Source of the DNA: Deltaproteobacteria bacterium
GTDB taxonomy: Bacteria > JAMCPX01
DNA length: 54,138 nt
Direction of reading: 5' to 3'
NCBI GenBank assembly: GCA_023381995.1
Contig: JAMCVD010000112.1
Coordinates: 1-54,138 of the forward strand
Shown: in pieces, positions 7,717 to 41,124 of the stretch
Layout: the number at the start of each line of letters is the position of its first letter
Numbering within the stretch: position 1 is the stretch's first letter
Position numbers and translations under genes: made by a program
The notes under the pieces: generated by a model
What the model saw: the letters and a program-made list of their open reading frames with translations, nothing else
Database searches by the model: none
What the model was told of the DNA's origin: nothing

Positions 7717-7770
7717 ATTGTTATCATAATTTGAATGCTATTCTCAAATACTGCGAAGCCTGTTTCCACC

Positions 7771-8903: not shown

Positions 8904-9206
8904 GCAAAAAGAATGGAACGCACGCTTTTCACCCAACCCGGCGCCTTAGCACCCTGTGCCCGTGTAAGGGATGATACAGAAGTACAGGCAGGTTTGGGAA
9001 GTTGGTTGTCCATGAGAAATTTGTATAGCAGACCCGATCAGAAAGAGCAAGCTTGGGTGGGGATGAATCCAATTGCTCATCGGATTATTTCGCCGGACCA
9101 GAGTCTCTTCAGAAATATGTTCCACGGCAGTATTGGTCAGGCTTTGTTTTCTCTTATACATGCATTATTAAAGTTTCATTATAAAATAACATGTAATAAT
9201 TAAAAG

Positions 9207-19945: not shown

Positions 19946-19971
19946 AAGTAAAAATAAAAGGAGGTCAATGT

Positions 19972-20415: not shown

Positions 20416-20425
20416 GGAGGAAGGT

Positions 20426-22312: not shown

Positions 22313-22320
22313 AATTTTCC

Positions 22321-22349
22321 ATGCAGAAGCGGACACGCCGCTTCTGCAT
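22321..22349. terminator. Stem-loop between aprA and qmoA (terminator or mRNA stabiliser)
   Basis: ATGCAGAAGCGG-acacg-CCGCTTCTGCAT, a perfect 12-bp stem with no clear U-tract on the + strand. Confidence 0.55.
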
Positions 22350-22378
22350 AATAAAAAAGCTATAGATAGCAGGTGCGT

Positions 22379-23644
22379 ATGGCAACGAGTATTGGCAATA
22401 GAAGTGTGTGCGTCATCGGCGGAGGAATCAGCGGGATGACAACGGCCATAGAAGCTGCAGAAGTAGGCTATGAGGTATACCTCATAGAGAAGGCCCCCTC
22501 GCTCGGAGGCAGGGTGGTCCAAATGAATCAATATTTCCCGAAGCTTTGTCCTCCGCAGTGCGGCGTGGAGATCAACTACAGGAGAATACGGGTAAATCCC
22601 AGAATACGACACTTTACGCTTGCAGAGGTTGAGGGCGTCTCCGGCATACCGGGCAATTTTGATGTAACGGTACGGATGGGACCGAGGTATGTTAATGAAA
22701 AGTGCACTTCGTGCAACAAATGTACGGACGCCTGTCCTGTCGAGAGGCAGAGCGACTACGATTATGGTATGGGGAAAACAAAGGCCATCTATCTGCCGCA
22801 CGAGATGGCCTTCCCCATGAGGTACGTCATTGACGATACGGTTTGCTTGAAGGAGCAGTGTTCGAAATGCGTGGCAGCATGCAGGTACGATGCGATTGAG
22901 CTTTCCATGAAGCCAAAGTCTCTTACCATCAACGTCGGCTCCGTTGTCCTGGCAACAGGATGGTCGCCTTACCATGCGATCAAGATAGATAATCTCAAAT
23001 TCGGCATCTATAGGAATGTTATAAGAAACGTCGAAATGGAAAGGCTTGCTGCACCGAACGGACCCACAAAAGGGAAGATACTAAGTCCATCCGACAAAAA
23101 GGAGATCAAGAGCATCGCTTTTGTCCAGTGCGCAGGCTCGAGGGATGAAAACCATCTGGCCTACTGCTCATCCGTTTGCTGTCTCGCGTCGATGAAGCAA
23201 GCTACCTATGTGAGGAGCCAGTATCCGGATGCGGACATATTTATATTCTATATCGATATAAGGGCGACCGGCCGGTTCGAGGACTTCTATGTAAAGCTCC
23301 AGACCGACAGGAAAATATCGTTTATAAAGGGGAAGGTCGCAAAGATAATCGAGGACGAGGGTACGAAGGCACTCACGGTCGTGGCCGAGGATATCCTTTC
23401 TGGGAAAAAGGTCTACAGAAAGGTTGATATGGTGGTACTGGCGACGGGTATGGTGCCGAACGGCATAAAGGCAAAGATGCCGGCTGACATTGTTTACGAT
23501 GAGTTTGGCTTCGCTGTATCAGACCTTCAATCGCCGGGAATCTATGTGACGGGCTGTACAAAGAAGCCAGCAGACGTAGCAAGTTGTATTCAGGACGCAA
23601 CAGGAACAGCGCTGAAAGCGATTCAGACGATCGTGGGGGTATAA
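22379..23644 (+). CDS. qmoA: QmoA (HdrA-like flavoprotein)
   Basis: GGGISG FAD motif, YFPKLCPPQCG, ferredoxin cysteines and QCAGSRDENHLAYCSSVCC; it follows aprA. Confidence 0.93.
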   Translation: MATSIGNRSVCVIGGGISGMTTAIEAAEVGYEVYLIEKAPSLGGRVVQMNQYFPKLCPPQCGVEINYRRIRVNPRIRHFTLAEVEGVSGIPGNFDVTVRMGPRYVNEKCTSCNKCTDACPVERQSDYDYGMGKTKAIYLPHEMAFPMRYVIDDTVCLKEQCSKCVAACRYDAIELSMKPKSLTINVGSVVLATGWSPYHAIKIDNLKFGIYRNVIRNVEMERLAAPNGPTKGKILSPSDKKEIKSIAFVQCAGSRDENHLAYCSSVCCLASMKQATYVRSQYPDADIFIFYIDIRATGRFEDFYVKLQTDRKISFIKGKVAKIIEDEGTKALTVVAEDILSGKKVYRKVDMVVLATGMVPNGIKAKMPADIVYDEFGFAVSDLQSPGIYVTGCTKKPADVASCIQDATGTALKAIQTIVGV

Positions 23645-23648
23645 AGCC

Positions 23649-25793
23649 GTGGACAAAATATTGGGTATATATATATGTTCAGGCTGTGATATTGGTGATT
23701 CGGTTGATGTAGATCGACTTCTGACCGTTGCTAAAGAAGAACAAAAAATACCGATTTGTATTAAACATTCAAATCTGTGTAATGCAGAAGGCGTGGAGCT
23801 TATAAAAAAAGACATTAAAGAACAGGGTGTAAACGCGGTTGTCGTTTCCGCCTGTTCTCCAAGGGTTCACTTCGATACATTTTCTTTTGGCCCATCCGTC
23901 TACGTAGAAAGGGTTAATCTGAGGGAACATGTTGCCTGGTCGCATGTACCCAAAGATGAGGACACCCAGATGCTTGCAGAAGACTACGTAAGGATGGGGA
24001 TTACAAAGGCCAAGAAAGCAAGCCCGCCTAAACCGTATATAGAGAATATTAACAAAACGCTCCTTGTTATTGGCGGAGGCATAAGCGGCATGACATCGGC
24101 TATTGAGTCTGCAAAGGCAGGATATAAGGTCATACTCGTGGAAAAAAGCCCCGTACTCGGAGGCTGGATGCGCAGATGGTACAGGCAGCTCCCACAAAAA
24201 CCTCCGTATAAAGGATTACAGGATGTTGATATAGAAAACACGATCGATGAAGTAAAAAAACATCCTGACATTAAACTTCTCACTTCTGCCGAGATAGAGA
24301 ATATAGCAGGACAGCCAGGCATGTTTGATGTATCGATAAAACAAGGCGGTAAGACCATAGTTGAAAGAGCGGGTTCGATAGTTGTATCGACTGGCTGGAA
24401 GCCCTACGATGCCGGTAAGGTCGACGGCCTTGGCTTTGGCAAGTATCCGAATGTGGTTAACAATATAACAATGGAAGATATAGCTGTCCAGGGTAAGGGG
24501 AAGATTAAGCGTCCGTCGGATAATAAAGATGTAAAATCTGTTGTGTTTGTGCAATGCGTAGGCTCAAGGGACAAGGACCATCTTCCCTATTGTTCCTCTG
24601 TATGCTGTCTTGTGTCTTTGAAACAGGCATCATACATAAGGAGCAGTAACCCGGCTGCGAAAGTTTACATAATTTATAAAGACATGCGTACCCCTGGACA
24701 ATACGAAAATTTCTATAAAGATACGCAGGCGGATGATGGGATATTCCTTACCAAGGGAGATGTTTTTTTACTTCATCGATCGTCGGATAAATCTCTTACC
24801 GTTGAAGTAAAAAATACATTACTCGGTGAAGATATAAGTATAAAGGCGGACATGGTCGTACTTGCAACGGGTATGGTGCCTGCTACAGATTCGAGTATAT
24901 TAAACCTTCGATACAGGCAGGGCAAGGAATTACCAATGCTGAAGTATGGGTTTCCGGATTCCAACTTTATATGTTTCCCGTACGAGACCCAGAGAACAGC
25001 TATATACGCGGCCGGGTGTGTGAGACAGCCGGCTGAGAGCAAAACATGCAAGGATGATGCGACGGGAGCGGCATTGAAAGCAATCCAGGCTGTGGAACTT
25101 GAATCCATAGGCTCTGCTGTTCATCCGAGGGCCGGAGACCTTTCATACCCGATATTCTTTATGCAAAAATGTACACAGTGCAAAAGATGTACCGAGGAAT
25201 GTCCATTTGGAGCGCTTGATGAGGATGAGAAAGGTTCACCAAAACCAAATCCAAACAGGTGCAGAAGATGTGGTGTTTGTATGGGTGCATGTCCTGAGAG
25301 GATTGTTTCATTCGAGAACTATTCGGTGGATATTGTGTCTTCGATGCTTAAATCTATAGAGGTACCCGGTGAAGAAGAAGAAAAACTCAGAATACTTGTA
25401 CTCGCATGCGAGAACGATGCTTACCCGGCTTTTGATATAGCTGGTATAAACCGTACCGTATTCAATCCCAAGGTGAGGATTATACCGGTACGGTGTCTTG
25501 GCTCCGTCAATATCGTATGGATAGCGGATGCGCTTTCGAGGGGCATAGATGGCATCATGCTCATAGGATGCAAGTACGGAGAGGACTACCAGTGCCATTT
25601 TATAAAAGGGAGCGAGCTTGCCAACAGAAGGATGGAAAATCTTAAAGAGGTGCTGCAGAGGCTTGTGCTCGAGCCTGAAAGGGTGCAAGTGCTTCAACTC
25701 GCTATCTCGGACTACGACAATATACCGGGGATTATGGACGACTTTATGGCGAAGGTCACCGAGCTCGGGCCGAATCCGTACAAGAGTTTTTGA
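23649..25793 (+). CDS. qmoB: QmoB (HdrA-like with C-terminal MvhD domain)
   Basis: YICSGC, ACSPR, NLREH, SNFICFPYETQR, two CxxCxxC..CP motifs, CENDAYPA, IPVRCLGS and GCKYGEDYQCHF. Confidence 0.95.
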   Translation: MDKILGIYICSGCDIGDSVDVDRLLTVAKEEQKIPICIKHSNLCNAEGVELIKKDIKEQGVNAVVVSACSPRVHFDTFSFGPSVYVERVNLREHVAWSHVPKDEDTQMLAEDYVRMGITKAKKASPPKPYIENINKTLLVIGGGISGMTSAIESAKAGYKVILVEKSPVLGGWMRRWYRQLPQKPPYKGLQDVDIENTIDEVKKHPDIKLLTSAEIENIAGQPGMFDVSIKQGGKTIVERAGSIVVSTGWKPYDAGKVDGLGFGKYPNVVNNITMEDIAVQGKGKIKRPSDNKDVKSVVFVQCVGSRDKDHLPYCSSVCCLVSLKQASYIRSSNPAAKVYIIYKDMRTPGQYENFYKDTQADDGIFLTKGDVFLLHRSSDKSLTVEVKNTLLGEDISIKADMVVLATGMVPATDSSILNLRYRQGKELPMLKYGFPDSNFICFPYETQRTAIYAAGCVRQPAESKTCKDDATGAALKAIQAVELESIGSAVHPRAGDLSYPIFFMQKCTQCKRCTEECPFGALDEDEKGSPKPNPNRCRRCGVCMGACPERIVSFENYSVDIVSSMLKSIEVPGEEEEKLRILVLACENDAYPAFDIAGINRTVFNPKVRIIPVRCLGSVNIVWIADALSRGIDGIMLIGCKYGEDYQCHFIKGSELANRRMENLKEVLQRLVLEPERVQVLQLAISDYDNIPGIMDDFMAKVTELGPNPYKSF

Positions 25794-25804
25794 AGAGGTG
25801 ATGT

Positions 25805-26968
25805 ATGGCTGACAATTTGGTAGAAAGCGACATCGAATTTGTAAGGGATGTCGCGAGGTTAGGAGGCGGTTCTTTGAAAAAATGCTTTCAATGCGCGACC
25901 TGTTCTGTCGTATGTTCACTGTCATCGGACGAAAAGCCCTTCCCGCGCAAAGAGATGATATGGGCACAGTGGGGATTGAAGGACAGGCTTCTTTCCGATC
26001 CCGATGTGTGGAGGTGTTATCAATGCGGAGATTGCTCGGTTTATTGTCCACGAGGGGCGAAGCCCGGGGAGGTGATGGGCGCCATACGAAACTATAGCTT
26101 TAAAAGTTATGCGTTCCCCCGGTTCATGGGCAGGCTTTTGAGCAGTCCAAGGTATCTGCCGTTGCTCTTCGCGATACCGGGAGTATTGTTTTTGATTGTG
26201 CTCCAACACATGGAGGCCCTTTCCACCGTCCCGTCGGGCCCTATCGCTTTTACCAGGTTTGACAACTATGTCGATTTGATCTTTGTGACCGTAAGTATTC
26301 TGGTCCTTCTGGCAACAGGTACAGGGGTCTTGAAGTTCTGGAAAGGCATGGATCGGAACAATGTCCGCGGTGACGGGTACGGCAGGATCGGCATAGGCAG
26401 CAGCGTCTTCCTGGCGGCCAAAGAGGTCCTGACACACAATAACTTCAAAAAGTGTGACGCGAACAATATACGCTACCTAGGGCACCTTTCGATATTTTAC
26501 GGATTTGCAGCCCTTTTCATAGTCACATCGATTGTATTTATAGGGTTGCGTGTGTTCCATATGGACCTGCCCATGGACCAGACGAACCCGATAAAGGTAC
26601 TGGGGAACCTTGGAGCCGTTACACTTATTGCGGGTTGCTCTATAGCGGTCTATAACAGGCTCGGTAGAAAAGAGCAGTCGGGCGAGAGCCATTACTATGA
26701 CTGGTTTTTTCTGAGCGTCCTGTCTTTGATAGGGGTGACGGGGCTGCTCACGGAAGTTGTGAGGCTGTCGGGCAACGCCGCAGCAGCTTACTGGTCGTAC
26801 TTTGTTCATCTGGTGTTCGTTTTTTCCCTTATTGCATATTTCCCATATTCAAAGTTTGCACATCTTATTTATAGGTTTGTGGCGATCGTATATGCAAGGT
26901 ATGCAGGTCTGGACGAGCCTGCCGAAGAAATGGTATCGGGAAAGATGGGAACGAAGAGTGTCGCTTAG
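25805..26968 (+). CDS. qmoC: QmoC (HdrC-like Fe-S domain plus HdrE-like heme b membrane domain)
   Basis: KKCFQCATCSVVC, PFPRKEMIWAQWG and CYQCGDCSVYCPRGAKP, followed by TM helices with HL and YSKFAH. Confidence 0.95.
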   Translation: MADNLVESDIEFVRDVARLGGGSLKKCFQCATCSVVCSLSSDEKPFPRKEMIWAQWGLKDRLLSDPDVWRCYQCGDCSVYCPRGAKPGEVMGAIRNYSFKSYAFPRFMGRLLSSPRYLPLLFAIPGVLFLIVLQHMEALSTVPSGPIAFTRFDNYVDLIFVTVSILVLLATGTGVLKFWKGMDRNNVRGDGYGRIGIGSSVFLAAKEVLTHNNFKKCDANNIRYLGHLSIFYGFAALFIVTSIVFIGLRVFHMDLPMDQTNPIKVLGNLGAVTLIAGCSIAVYNRLGRKEQSGESHYYDWFFLSVLSLIGVTGLLTEVVRLSGNAAAAYWSYFVHLVFVFSLIAYFPYSKFAHLIYRFVAIVYARYAGLDEPAEEMVSGKMGTKSVA

Positions 26969-26995
26969 CCGGCGCACAGAACTGTCCTACAATAG

Positions 26996-27178
26996 ATGAA
27001 CGTCCTGAATTGGATAGCTCAGATATCGCAGAGTACGGTACCGGGCAAGATATTCGACGCCCGCTGGATTTATGTCGTATGCTCTGTTTTCGTTCCCGCG
27101 GCAATAGGGGCGTCCGTGACATTCATCATAATGGCCCTGGAAAAAATATTTCGGGTGCATGGAGGAGGAGGTCACTGA
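26996..27178 (+). CDS. Small single-TM membrane protein (60 aa)
   Basis: It fills the qmoC-TauE gap, has a hydrophobic segment WIYVVCSVFVPAAIGASVTFIIMAL, and ends 3 nt before the next start. Confidence 0.55.
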   Translation: MNVLNWIAQISQSTVPGKIFDARWIYVVCSVFVPAAIGASVTFIIMALEKIFRVHGGGGH

Positions 27179-27181
27179 ATT

Positions 27182-28141
27182 ATGCACAGCGTGTACCTGC
27201 CTGTTGCACACGTCTCTGTCAACCTGCTGTGGATGTTGTTTTTCGGATTTATTGTAGGCGGCATGGCAGGTTTTTTCGGTGTCGGCGGCGGCTTCCTCAT
27301 AACACCGATGCTGAATGCCATCTTCGGCGTACCCTATCCCATCGCGGTCGGGTCGAGCCTTTCCCTGCTCGTAGGTATAACGGTGGCCTCGACGATACGG
27401 CACAGCAAGTATGGCAATATAGACTATAAGCTTGGATTTATCATGGTTGTGGGTACCGCCCTCGGAGTAAATGCAGGAGCAAAGCTCCTGACGGGAATCA
27501 AGTACGTGCAGGGCCTTCTCTTGACGAACATGGGATACCACATCGATCTCATAGAGATCGTAATGAGCCTTTCTTATCTTGTCATGCTCAGCTTGATAGG
27601 CCTGTCCATATTCAGAGAGTCCCTTAAGGCGCTAAAGATGACCAGGGGAGTTGTAATGGGCACTCCGGTCTCCGGCGAGCCGGAGGCGTCCGCCGGTGTA
27701 AAGAGAATAAGGGCATTGAGGATTAAGCCGATCATCAGTTTCCCGGCGTCCGGCATCTCAGGCATTTCCGTATGGGTGATTACGGGGATCGCGTTCGCCG
27801 TAGGTGTGCTGAGCGGTTTTATGGGCATCGGAGGCGGATTTATAATGATGCCAGCGCTCATATATGTCATCGGGTGCCCGACGGTAATCGCTGTCGGGAC
27901 AAGCCTGTTTGGCATCTTTTTTACGGCCGCTTACGGTGCATTCACGTACTCTCTCGATGGCAATATAGATCTGGTACTGGTCATTCCCGTCCTGATCAGT
28001 TCCGCGATAGGCTCTGTCATAGGGGCGTCATTTACAAGGAAAGCAGGCGGTCCCAGTGTAAGGATGTTGTTTTCCCTGATCGCTTTTGTCGCAGTCATAA
28101 TTGTGGCTGTCAAACTCTGTGCAACCCTGCTGTATGGCTGA
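27182..28141 (+). CDS. TauE/SafE (TSUP) family sulfite exporter / sulfur-compound permease
   Basis: Duplicated GFFGVGGGFLITP / GFMGIGGGFIMMP and AVGSSL / AVGTSL motifs; multiple TM helices. Confidence 0.92.
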   Translation: MHSVYLPVAHVSVNLLWMLFFGFIVGGMAGFFGVGGGFLITPMLNAIFGVPYPIAVGSSLSLLVGITVASTIRHSKYGNIDYKLGFIMVVGTALGVNAGAKLLTGIKYVQGLLLTNMGYHIDLIEIVMSLSYLVMLSLIGLSIFRESLKALKMTRGVVMGTPVSGEPEASAGVKRIRALRIKPIISFPASGISGISVWVITGIAFAVGVLSGFMGIGGGFIMMPALIYVIGCPTVIAVGTSLFGIFFTAAYGAFTYSLDGNIDLVLVIPVLISSAIGSVIGASFTRKAGGPSVRMLFSLIAFVAVIIVAVKLCATLLYG

Positions 28142-30756: not shown

Positions 30757-31362
30757 CTACTCTATATCGTTTTCTTCTTCGTTGTTGCCCGTCGTGAATA
30801 TGTCTTTCTCACTCTCGAGCGACTGTTTCAGAGCCTCTTCTTTTTCTACGTTTGAGGCGCAGTCTATGCATAGCTTGGCGAAGGGCAGTATCTTCAATCG
30901 TGCAACGGGTATTTCCTCGCCGCACACCTCGCATACGCCGTATGTCTTGTTTTCTATCTTTGCAAGTGCTTCGTCTATCTGCTTGAGTTTCTTCGTGTCC
31001 ATTGTCGTCAGCAGATACTCGTATTCCCTGTTCCTGTCCTCCGCTATTGCATCGAGGTCCTCTATTTCGATTGTTTTCTCCTCTTCCATGGACGATTTTT
31101 TTCTTACAAGCTGGTCTATGATGTCCGCCTTCATTTTCAAAAGCATCTGTTTGATGTGTTCGTACTCTACGTGAGAGGCTTCCCTTCTCTGTGTCGAAAC
31201 TTTTGGTGTAGCTGATTTGGCCTTCGGCCCGGATTTCACGCCCCCGCTCGGCGCGACCGATTTCGGACTCCTGGTTTTTGTCTTCCTTGTAAGTCTGGAC
31301 GACGGTTTTGCGGTCCCTAAGGCCTTTTTTGTTTTTTTGGTCTTCTTTTTTGGGGCTGCCAT
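30757..31362 (-). CDS. DksA/TraR C4 zinc-finger protein with a Lys-rich N-terminal tail
   Basis: IDEALAKI..YGVCEVCGEEIPVARLKILPFAKLCIDCA. An AAAGGAG RBS precedes ATG 31362. Confidence 0.85.
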   Translation of the reverse strand: MAAPKKKTKKTKKALGTAKPSSRLTRKTKTRSPKSVAPSGGVKSGPKAKSATPKVSTQRREASHVEYEHIKQMLLKMKADIIDQLVRKKSSMEEEKTIEIEDLDAIAEDRNREYEYLLTTMDTKKLKQIDEALAKIENKTYGVCEVCGEEIPVARLKILPFAKLCIDCASNVEKEEALKQSLESEKDIFTTGNNEEENDIE

Positions 31363-31481: not shown

Positions 31482-31519
31482 AAAAAAGCAAGGGCCTTCT
31501 GTGTTTTAATCGAAGGCCC
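31482..31519 (-). terminator. Putative intrinsic terminator after the cytochrome gene
   Basis: GGGCCTTC-N12-GAAGGCCC followed on the minus strand by TTGCTTTTTT. Confidence 0.45.
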
Positions 31520-31522
31520 CTA

Positions 31523-32572
31523 TTATTGTCCGTGGCAAACAGTACAGACTTTGTCTCTCGTCGTGCTGAGGCTGGACCTGAAATCGGACGGGTGTGGGTT
31601 GCCGCCTATGCCTCCGACCTTGTGGCACTGCACACATACTGCATCCGCTCCGCCGCTGTGACACGAGGCACAGGTATTGATGTTCTGCCTGGCGAGCCTT
31701 CCGTGAAATTGCGGCGAGGCCGTGTTGAAAAGGAAGTCCGTCCCGGCAGGGTGGGGGGACGCTGTGTTGGGTGTCCCGTTTGCGGCGATACCGTTCCTCA
31801 GGTGGCAATCACGGCAGTTGGATGGCGTGTGGCACCTGTAGCACGATGCCGGGTCCTCCTGTGCATCGATCGAATGGACCGAAAGCCAGTCGCCCCTGTG
31901 TATGAGCGGCTGCTGGGGCGCCTCGGGGTAGCGTACCGAAGGCAGTATCTTCGCATTCGTGTTGTGACAGTTGTCGCAGAAGGACAGTTGATGACATTGT
32001 TCGCACGATTCTATATCGGTCCTTGCGATTTCCCCATGGCTGTTCTTGAAGCCAGCGTTGTGGGTGAAGCGGGACAGCCTCTCTATAGCTATCGAACTCA
32101 ATGAGGTGTGACATCGGGAGCATTGCAGTGTGTCGTAGTCTTTCTGGTGGCATGTCAGGCACACCTGCATCGTTGGTAGATTGCCGGGTGTCGGTGATTT
32201 CTCCAGGGGGATGCGTGTATGGCAGTATGTACAATCGCTGTTGACTTTCGGCAGATGGGCCTTGTGGGAAAATACGATGTCCCGCTTTTCGATCGGAAAT
32301 GGTGCGGCCTTGTCGGGATTGGTATGGCACATGGTGCACTTGTTCTGCACATCGCTGTGGCATTGAAAGCAGATGTCCATCTTTGGTATAAAGCTGCCCG
32401 ACGTCGTGGTCGTCGTATCAATGCCGGAGTGGCACGTGAGGCAATCTATGCCGTTGGCAGTGACGTGTAGTTTATGGGAGAATGTCAGGGTGTCCCTGTT
32501 CGAAGAAAGTACCTTATTGCAGGAAACCGAAAACAATATAAGTGCGACAGCCAAAAAAATCCGTTTTTTCAT
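31523..32572 (-). CDS. Multiheme cytochrome c lipoprotein (13 CxxCH)
   Basis: I count 13 CxxCH motifs. The signal peptide MKKRIFLAVALILFSVSC ends in a lipobox Cys, and FSHKxH repeats are c7/c3-like. Confidence 0.93.
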   Translation of the reverse strand: MKKRIFLAVALILFSVSCNKVLSSNRDTLTFSHKLHVTANGIDCLTCHSGIDTTTTTSGSFIPKMDICFQCHSDVQNKCTMCHTNPDKAAPFPIEKRDIVFSHKAHLPKVNSDCTYCHTRIPLEKSPTPGNLPTMQVCLTCHQKDYDTLQCSRCHTSLSSIAIERLSRFTHNAGFKNSHGEIARTDIESCEQCHQLSFCDNCHNTNAKILPSVRYPEAPQQPLIHRGDWLSVHSIDAQEDPASCYRCHTPSNCRDCHLRNGIAANGTPNTASPHPAGTDFLFNTASPQFHGRLARQNINTCASCHSGGADAVCVQCHKVGGIGGNPHPSDFRSSLSTTRDKVCTVCHGQ

Positions 32573-32584
32573 AGTGCCTCCTTC

Positions 32585-33796
32585 TTAAAGTCCATATTTC
32601 AGGCTGAGCATGCCGAAGCCGCCATGCCGTATAAAGGGACCGTCTATGGAGTCTCCGGACAGCGTGAGCTTGAGGTCGTTTGTGATCGTTTTACCGACGG
32701 CTGCGTGGCCTACGATGCTGTGATCATAGCCGTTGAGCTCGCCGAGATAGGATGTATAGATGACTTCTATGTTCGCATAGAACCCCATTACGAAGCTCCT
32801 GAACAGGTAGAGTCTCGTCCTCAGGTAGTCCGTCGGGGCTGAATCGACCTTTTTCAATTCGAGGCCCATTGCGTAGGGGCGCATATCGTAGTCTACCGTG
32901 CCTCCGTAGCTGTACGCGTTGCCGTCGGAGCTGTACATGTATCTCGTCCCGTCCAAAGAAAGAGAGAGCGCATCGATGATTCTGTATCCCACATTCGCCG
33001 TTACGGTCCTGTACGACTCGGTATTAAACACCCAGAAAATGCTTGTCTTGTCGATGAGCGACGCCGGATCGAAGAGCGCATACTGTGCGTCCACGAACAC
33101 CTTCTTTATCGGGGTCAGGGACAATTTTAATGTGCCGTCGTATGCCCGCTTGTCGATCATGTCGTAGTAGTATCTCCCGAACAGGTACAGCATGTCGACG
33201 GGCTTTATCCATCCGTCTATGCCCCATCTTTCCTGTGAGATATCACCGCTGTTCTCCGCATAGAAGATGGAGCCGCCGACACCGAACAAGGACCTGCTGT
33301 AGGAGAGCCTTCCGCCTGTCGTTACGCCTCCCGGGGCATCGTGGAGCTCCGAGTCGACCTCGCTGCCGACGAATGCTCCGAGCCCCAGTCCGTAGAGGTT
33401 CCCGAGCATAAGCTCCAGGCCGTCGTAGCGGTCGTTTGCGGCGCCGAACCAGCTGGAAATCCTCCCGACCTTGAGGGCGATCGGAGCGCTCTTTGGCCGG
33501 TAGTCCAGATATCCGTAAGGCATGTCCACGGCTGTCCGGTTTGTATACACGGTATTGAGCAGATCGTACCTGAGCCAGCCGGACGCCTCGATGCTGAGTT
33601 CCCTGTCCGATGTGACGGGGTACGCAAGGTTCAAGTCTTCATAAAATGGAATATAACTGTTGTCCATATTGTTCATGTTCAGGCCGTAGGCCCCGAAATA
33701 TGTACTCGAATCGATATTGATGGGGGATGATGCCATTGCAACTTCGGGCAATAGAGCCATGAGAAGTATCGCCCATGTATTCTTCAATATCTTCAT
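32585..33796 (-). CDS. Putative outer-membrane beta-barrel (porin partner of the cytochrome)
   Basis: Sec signal peptide (..PEVAMA), alternating Tyr/Gly-rich amphipathic strands and a terminal strand LSLKYGL. AAAGGAGG RBS; the cytochrome starts 12 nt after its stop. Confidence 0.72.
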   Translation of the reverse strand: MKILKNTWAILLMALLPEVAMASSPINIDSSTYFGAYGLNMNNMDNSYIPFYEDLNLAYPVTSDRELSIEASGWLRYDLLNTVYTNRTAVDMPYGYLDYRPKSAPIALKVGRISSWFGAANDRYDGLELMLGNLYGLGLGAFVGSEVDSELHDAPGGVTTGGRLSYSRSLFGVGGSIFYAENSGDISQERWGIDGWIKPVDMLYLFGRYYYDMIDKRAYDGTLKLSLTPIKKVFVDAQYALFDPASLIDKTSIFWVFNTESYRTVTANVGYRIIDALSLSLDGTRYMYSSDGNAYSYGGTVDYDMRPYAMGLELKKVDSAPTDYLRTRLYLFRSFVMGFYANIEVIYTSYLGELNGYDHSIVGHAAVGKTITNDLKLTLSGDSIDGPFIRHGGFGMLSLKYGL

Positions 33797-33883
33797 TGTG
33801 CCTCCTTTAGAGTCCAGTTCACAATTTTCAATCAAGCATAAACAAATGGTGCTGGCAATAGATACAGAGACCGTGATAAAAAA

Positions 33884-35266
33884 CTAGTCCATGATACCAT
33901 ATTTCTTTATCCTGTATCTCAGCGAGCGCATCGGTATACCCAGCAATTCACAGGCCCTGGTCCTGTCGCCGGAGCATGCCCTGATCGCGTCCTCTATCAG
34001 TCCCTTTTCTATGGTGTTGAGGAGGTTGTCAATCACACCGTTGAATGTAAGCTTGATGTCTTCCAGCGTATACCCGTGCCCGCCCTTGTCCGAGACGACG
34101 TGGGTCAATTCCGGCGGGAGTGATTCGGGCAGTATGACAGGCGTTGACTCTATCGCGACCGCCCTTTCTACGATGTTCTCAAGCTCCCGGACATTGCCTG
34201 GATAATAGTAGCCCTTCAATAGGTCCATTGCCTCTTTTGAGAAGTTCTGGATGCCTTTGTTGAACTCCCCGCTGTATTTTTCGAGGAAGTGTCTCGCCAG
34301 AGGTAGTATATCGTCCTTCCTGTCTCTCAAGGGCCTCATCTCTATCTGTATTACATTCAATCTGTAGAACAGGTCTTCCCTGAACCTGGACTCTTTTATG
34401 AGCTGTTTCAGGTCCCTGTTCGTAGCGGATATTATTCTTACATCTACGGGGTACTCCGTCGGGTCTCCCACGGGCTTTACTTTTTTGTCCTGAATGATCC
34501 TCAACAACTTCACCTGGGTCTGAATCGGCAGTTCGCTGACCTCGTCGAGGAAGATGGTGCCACCGTCCGCCTCGAGAAAGAGTCCCTTTTTGTTTTCTAT
34601 GGCCCCGGTAAACGAACCTCTCTTGTGACCGAACAGTTCGCTCTCGACGAGATTCTCGGGGATTGCTCCGCAGTTGATCGGTATGAAGGGCTCGTCCTGC
34701 CGTGTGCCCTGATTGTGTATTGCACGGGCCACGAGCTCTTTGCCGGTCCCGGATTCGCCGTAGATGAGGATGTTGGTCCTCGTGTCTTTTACCCTGTTTA
34801 TGAGATTGAAGACTTCCTGCATGCTGCTGCTGACGCCCACGATGTCCCATTTCCCGTCCTTCATGCCGAGTTCCTGCCTGAGCCTTTTGTTCTCATGCTC
34901 GATCTTCTTGGTTTCGATGGCACGGCGGATCCGCAGCCTTAGATCGTCGTTGTTGAACGGTTTCGTAATGTAATCGTGTGCGCCGAGCTTTATTGCCTCC
35001 ACGGCGGTCTCTATGGTCCCGAACGCCGTTATGACGATCACCTGTATGTCGGGATAGAGCTCCCGTGCCTTTTTCAGCACTTCCAATCCGTTTATGGCAG
35101 GCATCATAAGATCGGTTACGATGAGATCGAAATAATTTTCCTTTAAGAGCAGGATGGCATCGGCACCATCTCTGGCACACGTCACGCTGTACCGCTCACG
35201 TTTCAGCACGAGTTCGAGGAACTCGCGCATCCCTTTATCGTCGTCCACAACAAGTATTTGGATCAT
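33884..35266 (-). CDS. pilR: Sigma54-dependent response regulator PilR
   Basis: REC domain (VVDDD, DLMMP, KPF), AAA+ motifs GESGTGKE, GSFTGA and FREDLFYRLNV, and a Fis-type HTH; pil context. Confidence 0.88.
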   Translation of the reverse strand: MIQILVVDDDKGMREFLELVLKRERYSVTCARDGADAILLLKENYFDLIVTDLMMPAINGLEVLKKARELYPDIQVIVITAFGTIETAVEAIKLGAHDYITKPFNNDDLRLRIRRAIETKKIEHENKRLRQELGMKDGKWDIVGVSSSMQEVFNLINRVKDTRTNILIYGESGTGKELVARAIHNQGTRQDEPFIPINCGAIPENLVESELFGHKRGSFTGAIENKKGLFLEADGGTIFLDEVSELPIQTQVKLLRIIQDKKVKPVGDPTEYPVDVRIISATNRDLKQLIKESRFREDLFYRLNVIQIEMRPLRDRKDDILPLARHFLEKYSGEFNKGIQNFSKEAMDLLKGYYYPGNVRELENIVERAVAIESTPVILPESLPPELTHVVSDKGGHGYTLEDIKLTFNGVIDNLLNTIEKGLIEDAIRACSGDRTRACELLGIPMRSLRYRIKKYGIMD

Positions 35267-35299: not shown

Positions 35300-36940
35300 C
35301 TACAGCGGCAGTCTGACTTCAACGGTCGTGCCCGCGCCCTTCTTGCTCTGTATGGACAGGGCGCCGTTGTGCTGCTCAACGATGGACTGTACGACCGGCA
35401 GGCCGAGCCCCGTGCCCCCGGGGTTTGTCGTCCAGAAAGGCTCGGTGGATGACCGTATCTCGTCCTCATCCATGCCCTGTCCATTGTCCTTAACGAGGAT
35501 CGAGACGTCGCTGTCCCTTTCGATGCATTCGACGGTCACCGTGCCGGCTTCCCTGATTGCATGAATAGCATTAAGGACGAGGTTGAGCAATATCTGTTTC
35601 ATCTTGAGCGTGTCTGCCCTTATGGAGGTCCTGTCCGCTACCGCGTTGAGCATGGTTACCGAAGGATTGTAGTCCACCCTCTCCATGACGCTCTCGAACA
35701 CCTCGTCGACGATCGGCTTCAGCATTACGCCCTCCTGTATGTTCGTAACGGGCTTCGACATGGAGAGGAACTCGGTGACGAGGTTATTTATCCTGTCTAC
35801 CTCCCTGAATACGAGACCCAGCGGCTTCTCAAATCTTTCGTTGTCTCCCAGGTCCTCTCTGAGGAGCTGGATCATCCCGCTGATGGAAGCGAGGGGGTTG
35901 CGTATCTCGTGGGCAACGCTTGCCGCGAGCCGGCCGGCGGTCACGAGTATGTCCGCCCGTTTGAGCCGTGCCTCCATCTTTTTCATCTCGGACAGGTCCT
36001 GAAAGGCTATGACCATGCCTATCGGCCTGGCCGTGCCCTTATAAAGGTTGGATATGGTGTAGCCTATCTGGATCGATGTACCGTCCTTTCTTCTGATGCC
36101 GAGCTCGTTCCTCTTGATGGTGAAGTCCTTGAGCTGGATGCCGGGCAGTATGTCCTCTATGACCTTGCCGGCGACCTCGCCGATGCTGTATCCTGTTATA
36201 TGACAGGCAGCGGGGTTCATTGTGCTGATCCTGTCGGAGGCATCGAGGGTTATCAGGCCGGTATCTATACTGTCGATAATGATGGTATGGAGGTTTTTCA
36301 GTCGTATGAGGTCCGTGCTGCTTGCAGACAGTGCCTTTTTTGCCCTGGTGAGGCTGTCACCAAGGAATGCGCTCAAAACACCCACGATAAACATCGTACT
36401 CATGTACGTGATCATATTGACCAGCGTTCCCCTGGCGGAGGTAAAGAGCTGCGAGGGCGGTATGAGCGACGGGAGCAGCCGGTAGTATTGTACGTCGACG
36501 AGCAACCCATACAGTATCGAAGACAGGGACGCAAACATGAGTGCTCCCTTTTTAGAGAGCAGGAACCCGCCCTCCATGGCGACGAAGAGGTACAGAAAGG
36601 TATAGATGCTGTCGATGCCCCCTGTCATTGTAACAATGGATGATACGAACACCGCATCCAGTGCAGTGACAAAGTAGGCCATGCTTTTGAGCGCCTCTTG
36701 TTTTCTCAGGGTCAGCAGCTCCACAAGACTGAGCACATAGAGGGCCACTATCAGTATGATCAAGGGAGACAGCCACGGGAGCGTGCTGAAGACAGCCCTG
36801 TACCGATATATTGTTACCGCAAGGCCTATGAGCAGGGTGACAATGGTCAGTCGAATCCCCGTGGACCAGTAGAGCCTGCTCAAAAGCTCTTGTTTCTCTA
36901 TCGGCGGTTCCGGCGAGGGGATATCGGTATAGTGTTTCAT
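35300..36940 (-). CDS. pilS: Sensor histidine kinase PilS
   Basis: N-terminal TM domain with TGGIDS, PAS domain, AHEIRNPL, NLVLNA, DNGQG and GTGLGL; it lies between pilC and pilR. Confidence 0.88.
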   Translation of the reverse strand: MKHYTDIPSPEPPIEKQELLSRLYWSTGIRLTIVTLLIGLAVTIYRYRAVFSTLPWLSPLIILIVALYVLSLVELLTLRKQEALKSMAYFVTALDAVFVSSIVTMTGGIDSIYTFLYLFVAMEGGFLLSKKGALMFASLSSILYGLLVDVQYYRLLPSLIPPSQLFTSARGTLVNMITYMSTMFIVGVLSAFLGDSLTRAKKALSASSTDLIRLKNLHTIIIDSIDTGLITLDASDRISTMNPAACHITGYSIGEVAGKVIEDILPGIQLKDFTIKRNELGIRRKDGTSIQIGYTISNLYKGTARPIGMVIAFQDLSEMKKMEARLKRADILVTAGRLAASVAHEIRNPLASISGMIQLLREDLGDNERFEKPLGLVFREVDRINNLVTEFLSMSKPVTNIQEGVMLKPIVDEVFESVMERVDYNPSVTMLNAVADRTSIRADTLKMKQILLNLVLNAIHAIREAGTVTVECIERDSDVSILVKDNGQGMDEDEIRSSTEPFWTTNPGGTGLGLPVVQSIVEQHNGALSIQSKKGAGTTVEVRLPL

Positions 36941-36945
36941 CACTG

Positions 36946-37048
36946 GATTGTACTTGCAATCTTGAAGATTGGTAAGTACATGTTTTCTTGCTCCGATAGC
37001 CTGTACTATTTGATTGTACTTGCAATCTTAAAGATTGGCAAGTACATG
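36946..37048. repeat. 37-bp direct repeat (36946-36982 and 37012-37048) duplicating the pilC 3' end
   Basis: gattgtacttgcaatcttRaagattggYaagtacatg, 35/37 identical with a 66-bp period. Both differences are synonymous. Confidence 0.9.
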
Positions 37049-38217
37049 GCAACGACGAGTCCGCCGATGACGACGCCGAGGAAGACGATCAACAGCGGCT
37101 CGATAAGCGATGTCATCGCGGCGACCGCAGTGTCCACCTCTTCGTCGTAGAAGTCTGCTATCTTCGACAGCATCGCATCCATGTTGCCCGTCGCCTCTCC
37201 CACTGAGATCATCTGAACGACCATGGAGGGGAAGACCTTCGTCTGCGCAAGGGGCTCGGAGATCGTTTTCCCTGCCGCTATGCTCTCCCTCGCCTTCATA
37301 ATGGCGTTCTCTATGATCACGTTGCCCGATGTGCGTGCGACGATCTCGAGGCCGTCCATGATGGGCACACCGCTCGATATCATGGTTGAGAGCGTCCTGG
37401 TGAACCTCGCCACGGCATTCTTGCGTATGATCTCCCCGAACACAGGCGTTTTCAGCAGCAGCCCGTCTATGACGAACTGGCCGCTCGATGTCTTGTAGTA
37501 GCGTCTGATCGCGTACACCACCGCCCCTATCCCGATAATCAGGTAGAGAATATAGTGTTTCAGGAAATTGCTGAGGTCCATGACGAACTGTGTCGGTGCG
37601 GGCAGGGCAGCGCCCACATCGGCGAACATCTTCGCAAAGATGGGTATTACGAAGAGAAGGAGGATCGCGACCGCGCCTGCCGCGACCGACAAGACCACTA
37701 TCGGGTATACCATCGCGCCCTTTACCCTGCCTTTCAGCTTTTCGGCCTTTTCGATATAGGTGGCAAGCCGTGCGAGGATTGTATCGAGCATACCGCCCAC
37801 CTCTCCTGCCGAAACAAGGTTGGTATAGAGTGAGTCGAAGGTCTCCGGGTGCTTCTTCAGGGCGGCGGCGAACGTGGAGCCGCCTTCTATGGACGCTTTT
37901 ATGTCTTTGATGGTCTTCTGAAAGGTCTTGTTGGGCTGCTGGGCACCGAGTATGTCGAGGCACTGGACAAGCGGCAGGCCTGAGTCTATCATTGTCGCAA
38001 ACTGCCTCGTAAAAACGGACAGGTCTTTGCCCGTGACCTTTTCCTTAAAGATGCTTAGATTGGCGAGATCGAGGGATGCCTTCTTTTCCTTGATGGTGAT
38101 GGGCCTTATGTCCTGCTGTCTCAGTATGGCTATTACGGCGTTCTCGTTCTGGGCGTCTGTGCTGCCTTTTACGGTCTCGCCTGTTTTTTTAATCCCTTCC
38201 CACCTAAAAACAGCCAT
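37006..38217 (-). CDS. pilC: Type IV pilus platform protein PilC
   Basis: FTRQFATMIDSGLPL, AGEVGGML, AMVYP, GEATG and MYLPIF. Confidence 0.95.
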   Translation of the reverse strand: MAVFRWEGIKKTGETVKGSTDAQNENAVIAILRQQDIRPITIKEKKASLDLANLSIFKEKVTGKDLSVFTRQFATMIDSGLPLVQCLDILGAQQPNKTFQKTIKDIKASIEGGSTFAAALKKHPETFDSLYTNLVSAGEVGGMLDTILARLATYIEKAEKLKGRVKGAMVYPIVVLSVAAGAVAILLLFVIPIFAKMFADVGAALPAPTQFVMDLSNFLKHYILYLIIGIGAVVYAIRRYYKTSSGQFVIDGLLLKTPVFGEIIRKNAVARFTRTLSTMISSGVPIMDGLEIVARTSGNVIIENAIMKARESIAAGKTISEPLAQTKVFPSMVVQMISVGEATGNMDAMLSKIADFYDEEVDTAVAAMTSLIEPLLIVFLGVVIGGLVVAMYLPIFKIASTIK

Positions 38218-38230: not shown

Positions 38231-39358
38231 TTAAAAGCTTTTCTGGGCATTCTGCATCCGTGCCTGAGCCTGGATGGACGGCGGGACTGGGGAGCCGGAC
38301 TGCAGCATCTGTTTGAGTTCTTCGAGATCCGTCGAGTAGATCATGGCGTCGTCCACCGAGATGAGTTTCCTCTGAAAGAGGTTGAACAAAGATTGGTTCA
38401 TTGTCTGCATGCCGAACTTTGCCTGTCCAACCTGCATATGGGAGTATATCTGATGGACCTTTTCCTCCCTTATCAGGTTCCTTACGGCAGGCGTGGGTAT
38501 CAATACCTCGCACGCCAGCACCCTGCCCGGCTGGTTGTACTTGGGTATAAGAGACTGGGTCAATACGCCTTCGAGGACGAAGGAGAGCTGTGCCCTTACC
38601 TGGGGCTGCTGGTGCGGGGGGAATGCATCGATTACCCTGTTTATCGTCTGGACCGCGGAGTTCGTGTGCAGTGTCGCAAGGACGAGGTGTCCGGTTTCGG
38701 CCGTATTCAGTGCGGCCTCGATCGTCTCGAGGTCCCTCATCTCGCCGATAAGCACGACGTCCGGGTCCTGCCTCAGAATATACTTTAAGGCGTTCGAGAA
38801 ACCCTTTGTGTCTGCCCCCACCTCCCTCTGGTTTACCACGCAGTTCTTGTGGGGGTGAAGATACTCTATAGGGTCTTCTATGGTGATGATATGCTCGTGC
38901 CTGTCCTCGTTTATCTTGGATATTATCGAGGCGAGCGTCGTCGTCTTGCCGCTGCCCGTCGGGCCCGTTACAAGGATCAGCCCTCTTGCCTTTTTTGTGA
39001 TTTCGGACACTACGGGTGGAAGGCCGAGCTCATCAAAGCCCAATATTTTGAAAGGGATTGTCCTGAACGCACCGGCGACTGCCCCCCTTTGCATGAAGAT
39101 GTTCGCCCTGAACCTGCTGAGCCCCTTTACCCCGAAGGACAGGTCGAGCTCGTTGTCCTGCTCGAATTTTTGTTTCTGTGCGTCCGTGAGGATGCTATAG
39201 CACAGCTGTTTCGTCTCGGTTGCAGTCAGGGGCGGCACTTTTAACGGCGCTAATTCGCCGTCTATCCTGAGCTGGGGCGGACTGCCTGTCGTTATATGAA
39301 GATCGCTTGCCCCTTTCTCTATCATTACCTTTAGCAACTGGTGCAGATTGAAACTCAT
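38231..39358 (-). CDS. pilT: Type IV pilus retraction ATPase PilT
   Basis: ASDLH, GPTGSGKTTTLA, TIEDPIE, LRQDPD, ETGHLVLATLHT, AVRNLIRE and GMQT. Confidence 0.96.
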   Translation of the reverse strand: MSFNLHQLLKVMIEKGASDLHITTGSPPQLRIDGELAPLKVPPLTATETKQLCYSILTDAQKQKFEQDNELDLSFGVKGLSRFRANIFMQRGAVAGAFRTIPFKILGFDELGLPPVVSEITKKARGLILVTGPTGSGKTTTLASIISKINEDRHEHIITIEDPIEYLHPHKNCVVNQREVGADTKGFSNALKYILRQDPDVVLIGEMRDLETIEAALNTAETGHLVLATLHTNSAVQTINRVIDAFPPHQQPQVRAQLSFVLEGVLTQSLIPKYNQPGRVLACEVLIPTPAVRNLIREEKVHQIYSHMQVGQAKFGMQTMNQSLFNLFQRKLISVDDAMIYSTDLEELKQMLQSGSPVPPSIQAQARMQNAQKSF

Positions 39359-39371: not shown

Positions 39372-41063
39372 TTAATCTTTGGCTGTTACCCTTACAACCT
39401 CATCCACCGTCGTAAGTCCCTTTCTCAGCAGCTCTATCGAGCTCTGCCGCATCGTCATCATGCCGACCCTCATGGCCTCCTTCTTTATTTCATTAGCAGA
39501 TGCACCCGCCAATATCAATTCCCTTATTTCTTCTCCTATGGTAAGGATCTCGTAGACGGCTATCCTGCCCTTGTAGCCGGTGTTGTTGCACGTCGTGCAC
39601 CCCTTGCCCTTATAGACCTTTATCTTTGCAACTTCCGACTCCGATATGCCTATGTCGAGCAACGCCTTTTTCTCGATGTCAATCTCTTCTTTACACTTTT
39701 CGCATGTTTTCCTGACCAGCCTCTGTGCGAGGATGGCATGGACGGACGAGGCGACGAGGAACGGCTCTATGCCCATGTTCAGCAGTCTGTTGATGGTACT
39801 GGGGGCATCATTGGTATGGATTGTCGACAGCACGAGGTGTCCGGTCAGTGCGGCCTTTACAGCTATCTCGGCGGTCTCATAGTCCCTGATCTCTCCGACC
39901 ATGATGATGTTGGGGTCCTGCCTGAGGAACGACCTCAGTGCCGCTGCGAAGTTGAGCCCTATCTCCTCGTGCATCTGTACCTGGTTGACGCCGGGGATGT
40001 TGTACTCGACGGGATCTTCCGCGGTCGAGACATTCTTGGATATCTGGTTCAGCTCTGACAGTGCGGAATAGAGCGTTGTGGTCTTGCCGCTGCCCGTAGG
40101 ACCGGTGACGAGCACCATGCCGTAAGGCTTATGTACGGCGTCCTTGAAGTCTTTGAGCTGCTTCTCGTTGAAGCCGAGCTTCGTCATGTCGAGCTGCAGG
40201 TTTGACTTGTCGAGCAACCTCAGGACGATCTTCTCGCCGAAGAGCGTGGGAAGGACGGAGACACGGAAGTCTATGTCTTTCCCATCGGCGTACCGGATCT
40301 TGATCCTGCCGTCCTGTGGCCTCCTCCTCTCTGCGATGTCCAGCTTTGCCATGATCTTTAATCTCGAGCTTATGGCGTTCTTGAGCGACACGGGGGGCTT
40401 CATTATCTCGTACAGCATACCGTCGATCCTGAACCTTACCCTGAAGCTCTTCTCGTACGGCTCCACGTGGATATCGCTTGCGCCCCTCTTGATCGCATCG
40501 TTCAGGATCGAGTTCACGAGCTTGATGACGGGCGCCTCCTCGCTCGCTTTCTCGAGGCTCTTGATGTCTATGTTGTCTTCCTCCCCGATGACTTCGTATT
40601 CTTCCGCGGCCTCATCCAGTATGCCCTGATAGTCCGTGGATATCTCGAAGAACTTTTCTATGGCCTTTTTCAGGGCACCCTCCGTGGCCGCGACGAACTC
40701 GACGTTGTAGCCTGTTAAAAACTTTATCTCGTCTATCACAGCGAGGTTGGTCGGGTCCGAAGTCGCCACAATGAGGGTGGCGCCCGTCTGATTGACGGGT
40801 ATGACAAGGTGCTTCTTTGCGATGTTCTCGGGTATCTTGCGAGCTATCTCTTTGTCTATATCGAACTCGTCGAGGTTTATGACAGGAACATTGTACTGTT
40901 TGCTGAGGAAGGTGAGCAGCTCTTCGTCGGTAACAAATCCAAGCTTCGTAAGGCTCGAGCCCAGTCGGCCCCCCTCGGCTTTCTGCTCTTCTATGGCTTT
41001 CTTCAGTTGGTCTGTTGTTATTAAGTTTTCTTTAACAAGAAGCTCACCGAGTCTCGAAGTCAT
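39372..41063 (-). CDS. pilB: Type IV pilus assembly ATPase PilB
   Basis: MshEN-like RLGELL..RLG, ASDIH, GPTGSGKTTTLY, FLRQDPN and Zn-binding CxxC..CxxC. Confidence 0.96.
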   Translation of the reverse strand: MTSRLGELLVKENLITTDQLKKAIEEQKAEGGRLGSSLTKLGFVTDEELLTFLSKQYNVPVINLDEFDIDKEIARKIPENIAKKHLVIPVNQTGATLIVATSDPTNLAVIDEIKFLTGYNVEFVAATEGALKKAIEKFFEISTDYQGILDEAAEEYEVIGEEDNIDIKSLEKASEEAPVIKLVNSILNDAIKRGASDIHVEPYEKSFRVRFRIDGMLYEIMKPPVSLKNAISSRLKIMAKLDIAERRRPQDGRIKIRYADGKDIDFRVSVLPTLFGEKIVLRLLDKSNLQLDMTKLGFNEKQLKDFKDAVHKPYGMVLVTGPTGSGKTTTLYSALSELNQISKNVSTAEDPVEYNIPGVNQVQMHEEIGLNFAAALRSFLRQDPNIIMVGEIRDYETAEIAVKAALTGHLVLSTIHTNDAPSTINRLLNMGIEPFLVASSVHAILAQRLVRKTCEKCKEEIDIEKKALLDIGISESEVAKIKVYKGKGCTTCNNTGYKGRIAVYEILTIGEEIRELILAGASANEIKKEAMRVGMMTMRQSSIELLRKGLTTVDEVVRVTAKD

Positions 41064-41095
41064 ACATGTGCCCCCCCCTTCAGGTATTTGCACGA

Positions 41096-41124
41096 AGTAT
41101 ACGGTAAACCGCTGATGGTGTCAA
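41096..41124 (-). promoter_or_regulatory. Near-consensus sigma70 promoter for the pil operon
   Basis: Minus strand TTGACA-N17-TATACT, about 30 nt upstream of the pilB start. Confidence 0.7.

Follow-up and report, generated by a model that had tools for sequence, protein, structure and literature searches.

The closest described counterparts of the locus discussed here are the pcc gene clusters, in which, according to the available text of Shi et al. (2014; PMC4245776), a gene for a porin-like protein of 18–22 predicted strands is always paired with an adjacent, co-evolving cytochrome gene of 5–14 haems and usually also with a gene for an outer-surface cytochrome. Two-gene clusters are described there from three Anaeromyxobacter strains and from Kuenenia, and their single long cytochrome, of 338–344 amino acids and 12–14 haems, was proposed to span the membrane alone. 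Here we describe a gene pair of like design on contig JAMCVD010000112.1 of a Deltaproteobacteria bacterium (JAMCPX01, assembly GCA_023381995.1), which encodes a predicted outer-membrane beta-barrel and a 13-haem lipoprotein cytochrome c and is located directly downstream of pilR, a regulatory gene of the type IV pilus. The window analysed is the whole contig of 54,138 nucleotides, and coordinates are positions within it in forward-strand numbering. Taken as a whole, the findings are best, and with fair probability, explained by a minimal Pcc-type conduit across the outer membrane that was placed behind pilR by a one-off rearrangement.

Both genes are located on the minus strand. The barrel gene (32585–33796), assigned from a structure model and family searches, encodes 403 amino acids with a signal peptide at about residues 1–22. 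Its ATG start is preceded by an AGGAGG ribosome-binding site and is shared by the homologues, while an alternative TTG start at 33835 would yield 416 amino acids. The cytochrome gene (31523–32572) follows after a gap of 12 nucleotides, with separate ribosome-binding sites for the two genes, and encodes 349 amino acids with 13 CxxCH motifs; its assignment draws on the motif count, Pfam matches, an alignment and a model of the complex. A preliminary description had read this region as pilB-pilT-pilC-pilS-pilR, an 87-nucleotide gap, a beta-barrel and a 13-CxxCH lipoprotein, and the open reading frame (ORF) coordinates and Pfam matches agree with that order.

The 403-residue protein belongs to no family in Pfam or NCBIfam. 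Only 15 close relatives turned up in a word-indexed search, but a full profile search extended the family to 347 representative proteins at E ≤ 1e-3 (146 at E ≤ 1e-10), mostly 400–450 amino acids long. The relatives are equally nameless: the protein atlas places the barrel in unnamed clusters only, from Thermodesulfobacteriota, Zixibacteria and Nitrospirota, every name in a cluster look-up was “hypothetical protein”, none of the 17 proteins found in a homologue search with a broad barrel alignment was named, and a related-locus search with an alignment of close relatives gave records from the same lineage only. Among 79 diverse family members, Pfam matches were limited to Porin_4 in seven and OMP_b-brl in two. 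An AlphaFold2 model built from these 79 sequences is all-beta, with a predicted local distance difference test (pLDDT) score of 93.3 and a predicted template modelling (pTM) score of 0.82. It consists of a signal helix and 24 DSSP strand elements, read as 22 strands, which are joined by connections of 2–19 residues, with no long constriction loop and no plug. Every match listed in a Foldseek search against the PDB was an outer-membrane barrel, with the best E-values to MOMP and the best query TM-scores, 0.61–0.63, to the 24-strand FimD usher (0.47–0.55 for PapC). By this model the protein is a loop-poor outer-membrane beta-barrel of about 22 strands, which bears out what had been proposed for it from the sequence.

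The distribution of the barrel gene ties it firmly to a multihaem cytochrome. Our phylum sample comprised 13 species from a GTDB-based collection, the present genome (G000) included, and each of the 13 genomes contains exactly one copy of the barrel with a cytochrome homologue adjacent to it. At E ≤ 1e-10 the barrel is present in 64 of 401 sampled genomes, 51 of them among the 388 outside the phylum, so a family without a name in Pfam or NCBIfam is nonetheless common. The search listed 56 barrel places outside the phylum, of which 40, from 38 genomes, were retained for the analysis of flanking genes; the other 16 comprised G019, which had been examined separately, two places in G064 and one in G061 that lie at contig ends, and twelve partial or weak matches. 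In G019 the barrel gene is followed by a 5-haem gene and a 4-haem gene. A cytochrome-homologous segment starts on the same strand between −6 and +492 nucleotides past the barrel stop in all 40 loci according to tblastn, although the evidence is weak in five of them (E 1e-6 to 1e-9) and proteins rich in haem motifs can cross-match. A count of ORFs placed one with at least four haems downstream of the barrel in 34 of the 40 loci, and anywhere within 5 kb in 38. Thus, barrel and cytochrome are an obligately linked pair.

This linkage bears on the possibility that an ordinary diffusion porin, or another outer-membrane protein, came to lie beside a periplasmic cytochrome and behind pilR by chance. 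Such an explanation could draw on the lack of a named family and on the top Foldseek E-values to general porins such as MOMP, but it is hard to reconcile with the cytochrome homologue found downstream in every one of the 40 loci from other phyla, with a spacing of 12 nucleotides between two genes that each have a ribosome-binding site, with a modelled barrel of some 22 strands that has very short loops and lacks a constriction loop, and with a predicted complex that scored 0.76 as compared to 0.00 for the best control (see below). We consider chance association to be extremely improbable.

The partner cytochromes fall into three size classes, with 5 haems in 147–174 amino acids, 7–9 haems in 187–234 amino acids and 10–14 haems in 286–431 amino acids. 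The 5-haem partners align to residues ~143–258 of the 13-haem cytochrome and the 8-haem partners (220–234 amino acids) to residues ~131–349. Since the short partners align to its middle and C-terminal parts, the module shared by the partners consists of haems 6–10, extended to haems 6–13, and it is this common module that is predicted to occupy the barrel lumen. The N-terminal c7-like arm (haems 1–5) is, to judge from these alignments, an addition found in the long form. Two loci in this collection have unusual frames: a 552-residue barrel ORF at L105 (G167:C23, 4382–6040) itself contains four CxxCH motifs and may be a cytochrome-barrel fusion, and an 819-residue open frame that overlaps the barrel gene at L087 (G244:C74) is probably spurious.

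The 13-haem cytochrome has the same bipartite appearance in domain searches, with a c7-like N-terminal half (haems 1–6) and a C-terminal half (haems 7–13) that is the predicted barrel insert. Pfam recognised Cytochrome_C7 (55.9 bits) and Paired_CXXCH_1 in the protein, as well as the MtrC/MtrF domain II/IV on the C-terminal half (52 bits, cut-off 30), with the best stretch at residues 197–349. Among NCBIfam models it matched no decahaem family and gave only weak matches, below the cut-offs, to QrcA and DsrJ. In a sequence comparison with solved structures, residues 29–160 matched 3OV0 (E 7.8e-13), which we take to be the Geobacter c7-type dodecahaem protein GSU1996. More than 350 homologues of about 350 amino acids share 35–42% identity with it over the full length, some of which were labelled at the source as Myxococcota or “Deltaproteobacteria”. 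In an alignment of 64 sequences, twelve CxxCH motifs are invariant and the thirteenth nearly so, and nine further histidines are invariant. The signal peptide ends in ...LFSVSC, and its final lipobox cysteine is kept in 62 of the 64 sequences, because of which we consider the long 13-haem cytochromes to be a lipoprotein family. The long form is thus a conserved lipoprotein rather than a soluble periplasmic protein.

How the two proteins might fit together was modelled with the mature barrel (residues 23–403) and the mature cytochrome (residues 18–349), using custom alignments. The interface score (interaction prediction score from aligned errors, ipSAE) was 0.76, 0.76 and 0.60, as compared to 0.00 for the best of three controls, a score that expresses the model's own confidence and may echo the solved MtrAB arrangement. 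In calibration, the mark used for this score was attained for 58 of 80 solved complexes and for 2 of 110 mismatched pairs, counts that hold only roughly here because custom alignments were used. At least 64% of the contacts agreed between runs, and the pLDDT of the partner was at least 67. The confident interface comprises alternate residues along nearly every strand of the barrel, and an interface at every second residue means that the side chains involved face the lumen. On the side of the cytochrome, the interface corresponds to residues 168–346, and it is this half whose homologues accompany the barrel in other phyla. The C-terminal seven-haem half is thereby placed inside the barrel, and the model supports, without proving, a haem wire threaded through it as in MtrAB.

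We hypothesize that the wide barrel of about 22 strands, with its very short loops and no plug, would form the sheath of the conduit, and that the C-terminal half of the cytochrome (residues ~168–346, haems 7–13) would fill the lumen as an insulated haem wire. The six-haem c7-like half, which bears the lipid anchor, would then project from one face of the barrel. Together, the two proteins are probably an electron carrier across the outer membrane of the described two-gene Pcc type. Several points besides the possible echo of MtrAB weigh against this hypothesis. Both the barrel and the complex were modelled without haems, and a barrel model built first from 14 near-identical sequences reached a poor pLDDT of 42.8. 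MtrB was not among the 50 Foldseek matches listed for the barrel, and a comparison of the barrel profile with the sequences of solved structures found no relative. Furthermore, the cluster contains no gene for a periplasmic cytochrome.

For the projecting arm we favor the periplasmic face, where it could exchange electrons with soluble periplasmic cytochromes, because lipoproteins by default stay on that face in the sorting pathway and because the arm resembles periplasmic c7-type cytochromes. Alternatively, the cytochrome could be a surface lipoprotein whose six-haem arm extends outside, an arrangement proposed for OmcB or ExtC/ExtD, and electrons could then flow mainly inward, with Fe(II), minerals or a partner as donors for sulfate reduction. 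The MtrC/MtrF II/IV match to a domain of surface cytochromes is consistent with this alternative, as are the sat-aprBA-qmoABC genes in the window and the recurrence of this DNA in metagenomes from mine tailings and mine drainage, which are iron-rich settings. The residue lists of the complex model point the same way: nearly all odd-numbered connections of the barrel, which are extracellular if its N-terminus is periplasmic, touch the cytochrome, as compared to only 1 of 10 even-numbered turns. These observations have to be set against the c7-like character of the N-terminal half and the default route of lipoproteins. Published descriptions of related proteins are divided, since those of Geobacter conduits, also lipoprotein cytochromes, are assigned to the outer surface (PMC6148476), whereas the counterparts in Anaeromyxobacter and Kuenenia are called periplasmic (PMC4245776), as far as the available text of the two papers goes. 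All in all, we find a surface-exposed arm and inward flow doubtful, though far from implausible, and retain the periplasmic placement as our working hypothesis.

The position of the pair behind pilR is best understood by comparison within the phylum. In G012, from the sister family f2, pilBTCSR is followed by a gene for a 216-residue pilin, and the barrel and cytochrome genes are located on another contig. The gap between pilR and pilA in this genome (L117, G012:C63, 5729–5939) contains an exact sigma-54 box, TGGCACAGAACTTGCA (TGGCAC-N5-TTGCA), about 55 nucleotides before the pilin start. Because the sister family has pilR-pilA at this place, the site is a genuine pilA slot, as had been assumed. 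In 10 of the 13 genomes (G000, G001, G002, G003, G004, G005, G007, G008, G009 and G011), pilR is directly followed by the barrel gene; in G010 the contig starts inside the barrel gene and the upstream neighbour is not visible. The arrangement is absent from G012 and the 34 listed loci of other phyla, as well as from G006 of genus g5, where the barrel, the cytochrome and a dksA-like gene are located apart from the pil genes. The 3' neighbours of the G006 pair are the same as in G001, G004, G005 and G007, a divergent 8-haem cytochrome gene lies upstream of it, and pilBTCSR is followed by convergent genes.

A tree inferred from PilT, PilC, PilS and PilR (1801 columns, LG+G4, rooted on G012) included 9 of the 13 genomes; G003, G008, G010 and G011 lack complete genes and were therefore not included. 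G006 branches outside a clade (support 98) that holds all genomes in the tree with the pilR-barrel juxtaposition. The most parsimonious reading is that one rearrangement took place in the ancestor of that clade. It would have arisen once, in the ancestor of genera g1–g4, and pilA would thereby have been moved elsewhere together with its sigma-54 promoter. The probable displaced copies of pilA are found on contig C55 of the present genome (11119–12313, plus strand), as two tandem genes for type IVa pilins. Sigma-54-type boxes are located upstream of them at 11097 and 11770, TGGCATAATTACTGCT and TGGTATATTCTGTGCT (TGGCAT-N5-CTGCT and TGGTAT-N5-GTGCT), and PilR therefore keeps a plausible target elsewhere in the genome. 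Further pilin-like genes were found on contigs C50 and C89. Neither protein of the pair has a pilin motif, and the earlier remark that no pilin is encoded at this site is thus borne out.

The gap of 87 nucleotides between pilR and the barrel gene (33797–33883) offers some clues to the regulation of the pair. A search for TGGCAC-N5-TTGCW with up to three mismatches found no sigma-54 box in this interval, nor was any GG-N10-GC present in the intergenic part of the seven genomes with the arrangement that were compared, whereas pilA of G012 and the C55 pilin genes served as positive controls and each carry a box. A G+C-rich hairpin with a T-run was likewise not found in the gap. Both absences had been noted in the preliminary description and are confirmed. 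As judged from the sequence, the pair is not a direct target of PilR and sigma-54. The cross-genome comparison instead revealed a conserved motif, TTGCCA-N17-TTGATT with TG before the second hexamer, at 33830–33858 (minus strand). It is recognisable in six of the seven genomes as well as before the stand-alone pair of G006, and a motif common to the gap and to the stand-alone copy suggests that the pair has a promoter of its own. Two results argue against this: the motif is missing in G004, and a strict sigma-70 scan identified no promoter in the gap, the second hexamer having no A at position 2. Because the strict rule failed, we use the word promoter tentatively; the motif is possibly a weak promoter of the pair or a regulator site. 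The pair is probably driven by this conserved element, perhaps with some read-through from the pil operon.

We also considered that the pair might be a transcriptional and functional part of type IV pilus biogenesis, positioned at the distal end of a pilBTCSR transcript and working with the pilus machine, for example by feeding pilus-dependent cytochrome filaments or in interspecies electron transfer. The pair shares the strand of pilR at a distance of 87 nucleotides, no terminator-like hairpin appears until past the cytochrome, 10 of the 13 genomes, from four genera, retain the arrangement, and conduits and filaments have been suggested to be co-expressed (PMC10553843, in the part available). 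Yet the pair is located away from the pil genes in the earliest-branching genus (G006) and in the sister family (G012), none of the 34 listed loci of other phyla has pilB, pilT or pilC nearby, and the gap lacks the sigma-54 box that pilA keeps wherever it is found. Moreover, 87 nucleotides is the longest gap in the cluster, and a separate promoter is suggested by the motif that recurs before the stand-alone G006 copy. A functional union with the pilus is unlikely in our view. The tie to pilus biogenesis that had been proposed for the pair is a derived juxtaposition within one clade, absent from genus g5, family f2 and the 34 listed loci of other phyla; the link is positional, is best explained by local rearrangement and provides no evidence for conductive-pilus biology.

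A related idea is that, within the clade, the conduit is expressed mainly by read-through of the pilus operon containing pilS and pilR, so that the pilus machine and the electron exit are made together. We rate this as distinctly unlikely. If true, a possible reason is that the pilus machine helps to place extracellular cytochrome filaments that are fed by the conduit, and pili and conduits would be coupled in their regulation in a way not described so far.

The pil genes upstream of the pair are all located on the minus strand and were readily assigned. They encode the extension ATPase PilB (39372–41093; Pfam T2SSE 4.4e-145, MshEN 2.2e-24), the retraction ATPase PilT (38231–39358; T2SSE 2.6e-51), the platform protein PilC (37006–38217; T2SSF 5e-67), the sensor histidine kinase PilS (35300–36943; 6TM_PilS 5.1e-10, PAS, HisKA, HATPase_c) and the sigma-54-dependent response regulator PilR (33884–35266; Response_reg, Sigma54_activat 2e-71, HTH_8), with gaps of 13, 13, 62 and 33 nucleotides between them. 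A sigma-70-like promoter upstream of pilB (41096–41124, minus strand; TTGACA-17-TATACT, 11 of 12 consensus positions) is the best among nine sites in the region, a site count not above that in shuffled sequences (mean 7.7). The genome contains seven full or near-full genes for enhancer-binding proteins, pilR among them. The remnant of another sigma-54 activator is located beside a multihaem island on contig C118 (62867–63148, minus strand). The idea that PilR is a close paralogue of this remnant was rejected, since the two share 35% identity over PilR residues 353–458 only, as compared to 39–48% for other activators.

On the other side of the pair, past the cytochrome stop, is the first terminator-like hairpin of the region, as had been described (~31482–31520, minus strand). 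It has a G+C-rich stem of nine base pairs and a loop of 12 nucleotides, followed by the T-run TTGCTTTTTT, and the surrounding 61 nucleotides fold at −20.5 kcal/mol. The hairpin was found by folding, because its loop exceeds the limit of eight nucleotides in our automated scan. Beyond it lies a gene for a DksA/TraR-type zinc-finger protein (30757–31362, minus strand; Pfam zf-dskA_traR 5e-15) with a long lysine-rich N-terminus. Nine of the 13 genomes have the dksA-like gene downstream of the pair, and the remaining four loci stop at a contig edge. It still adjoins the pair in G006, despite the separate location of the pil genes there.

The assembly to which the contig belongs has a size of 2.1 Mb in 134 contigs, is 84% complete and encodes 23 ORFs with three or more CxxCH motifs. 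The plus strand of the window (18716–28141) carries a group of genes for sulfate activation and reduction, which encode ATP sulfurylase (sat), AprB, an AprA-like flavoprotein, three QmoABC-like proteins and a TauE/SafE-type exporter. The host probably reduces sulfate or, by running the pathway backwards, oxidises sulfur. The segment at 4000–10000 has a low GC content (0.40–0.48, as compared to 0.50–0.61 elsewhere) and minus-strand genes of unknown role, and may be acquired DNA. With the pair described here, a small uncultured sulfate-reducing phylum from mine wastes would join the carriers of a minimal outer-membrane conduit with a single cytochrome.

The question is finally how this pair relates to the conduits that have been described, as far as the available text of the cited papers allows a comparison. 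Its features agree with those of the Pcc type: the modelled barrel, with about 22 strands, is inside the range of 18–22 given for Pcc porins, the partner has 13 haems, within the range of 5–14, and accompanies the barrel in 13 of 13 genomes of the phylum and 40 of 40 loci elsewhere, and the cytochrome is placed inside the barrel in silico (0.76 versus 0.00). This assignment is founded on the architecture and on homology with numerous unnamed clusters of like design, with named Pcc proteins such as Adeh_3392 likened by description, a qualification that tells against a closer identification. The papers that defined the clusters (Liu 2014; Shi 2014) used BLAST similarity to OmbB/OmaB as a criterion, and neither Pfam nor NCBIfam includes a model for the named Pcc proteins. 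Like the two-gene clusters of Anaeromyxobacter and Kuenenia, the pair has one long cytochrome, here of 349 amino acids and 13 haems, and no gene for an outer-surface cytochrome; it differs in that the cytochromes of those clusters are called periplasmic (PMC4245776), whereas a lipobox cysteine is present here and in 62 of 64 relatives. The pair is flanked by pilR and a dksA-like gene, a position behind pilR not being reported in the available part of PMC4245776. Thus, of the claim that this is an undescribed conduit module, the conduit pair stands, while the novelty does not, given the two-gene clusters already in print (PMC4245776) and the 64 sampled genomes with the barrel.

The resemblance to MtrAB, MtoAB and PioAB is one of working principle, a haem wire sheathed by a barrel (PMC6148476), and MtrAB without MtrC is cited as able to move electrons across the membrane (PMC4245776). 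The barrel is smaller, with about 22 strands as compared to 28 predicted for MtrB (PMC4245776), and the cytochrome has 13 haems in place of the 10 in MtrA. MtrB_PioB (PF11854) had no match at E ≤ 0.01 in the barrel and none in the genome, which is 84% complete. With no match to the decahaem families either, membership in this family was rejected, and the pair is not a plain Mtr ortholog. Another parallel is the OmcK/OmcL-type porin-cytochrome pair of Ca. Desulfofervidus and Seep-SRB2, which has no adjacent gene for a periplasmic cytochrome and was proposed to serve interspecies electron transfer (Murali et al., 2023; PMC10553843). It likewise combines a porin with one cytochrome in a sulfate reducer, a likeness drawn from its description.

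In Geobacter sulfurreducens, the ombB-omaB-omcB clusters, the prototype of the Pcc type, share the order of a porin gene followed by a co-evolving cytochrome gene (PMC4245776, PMC6148476), but split the path between an 8-haem periplasmic protein and a 12-haem surface lipoprotein, where the present locus has a single 13-haem lipoprotein and no gene for a TetR-type regulator. The same layout is seen in our collection at locus L090, with a barrel, an 8-haem protein of 224 amino acids that aligns to residues 144–347 of the 13-haem cytochrome, and a 12-haem protein of 732 amino acids. In the ExtB-ExtC and ExtE-ExtF pairs of the same species, a 5-haem lipoprotein comes after a barrel with 18 or 21 predicted strands, and the ExtABCD and ExtEFG clusters add separate periplasmic and surface proteins of 12 haems each (Jimenez Otero et al., 2018; PMC6148476). 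Four loci (L064, L073, L074 and L076) have a similar order of a barrel and a 5-haem protein of 147–174 amino acids that aligns to residues ~143–258, and their layout suggests orthology to Ext. As the wire half and the projecting arm are joined in one protein, a single cytochrome in the proposed conduit would do the work that is split between OmaB and OmcB, or between MtrA and MtrC, in other bacteria.

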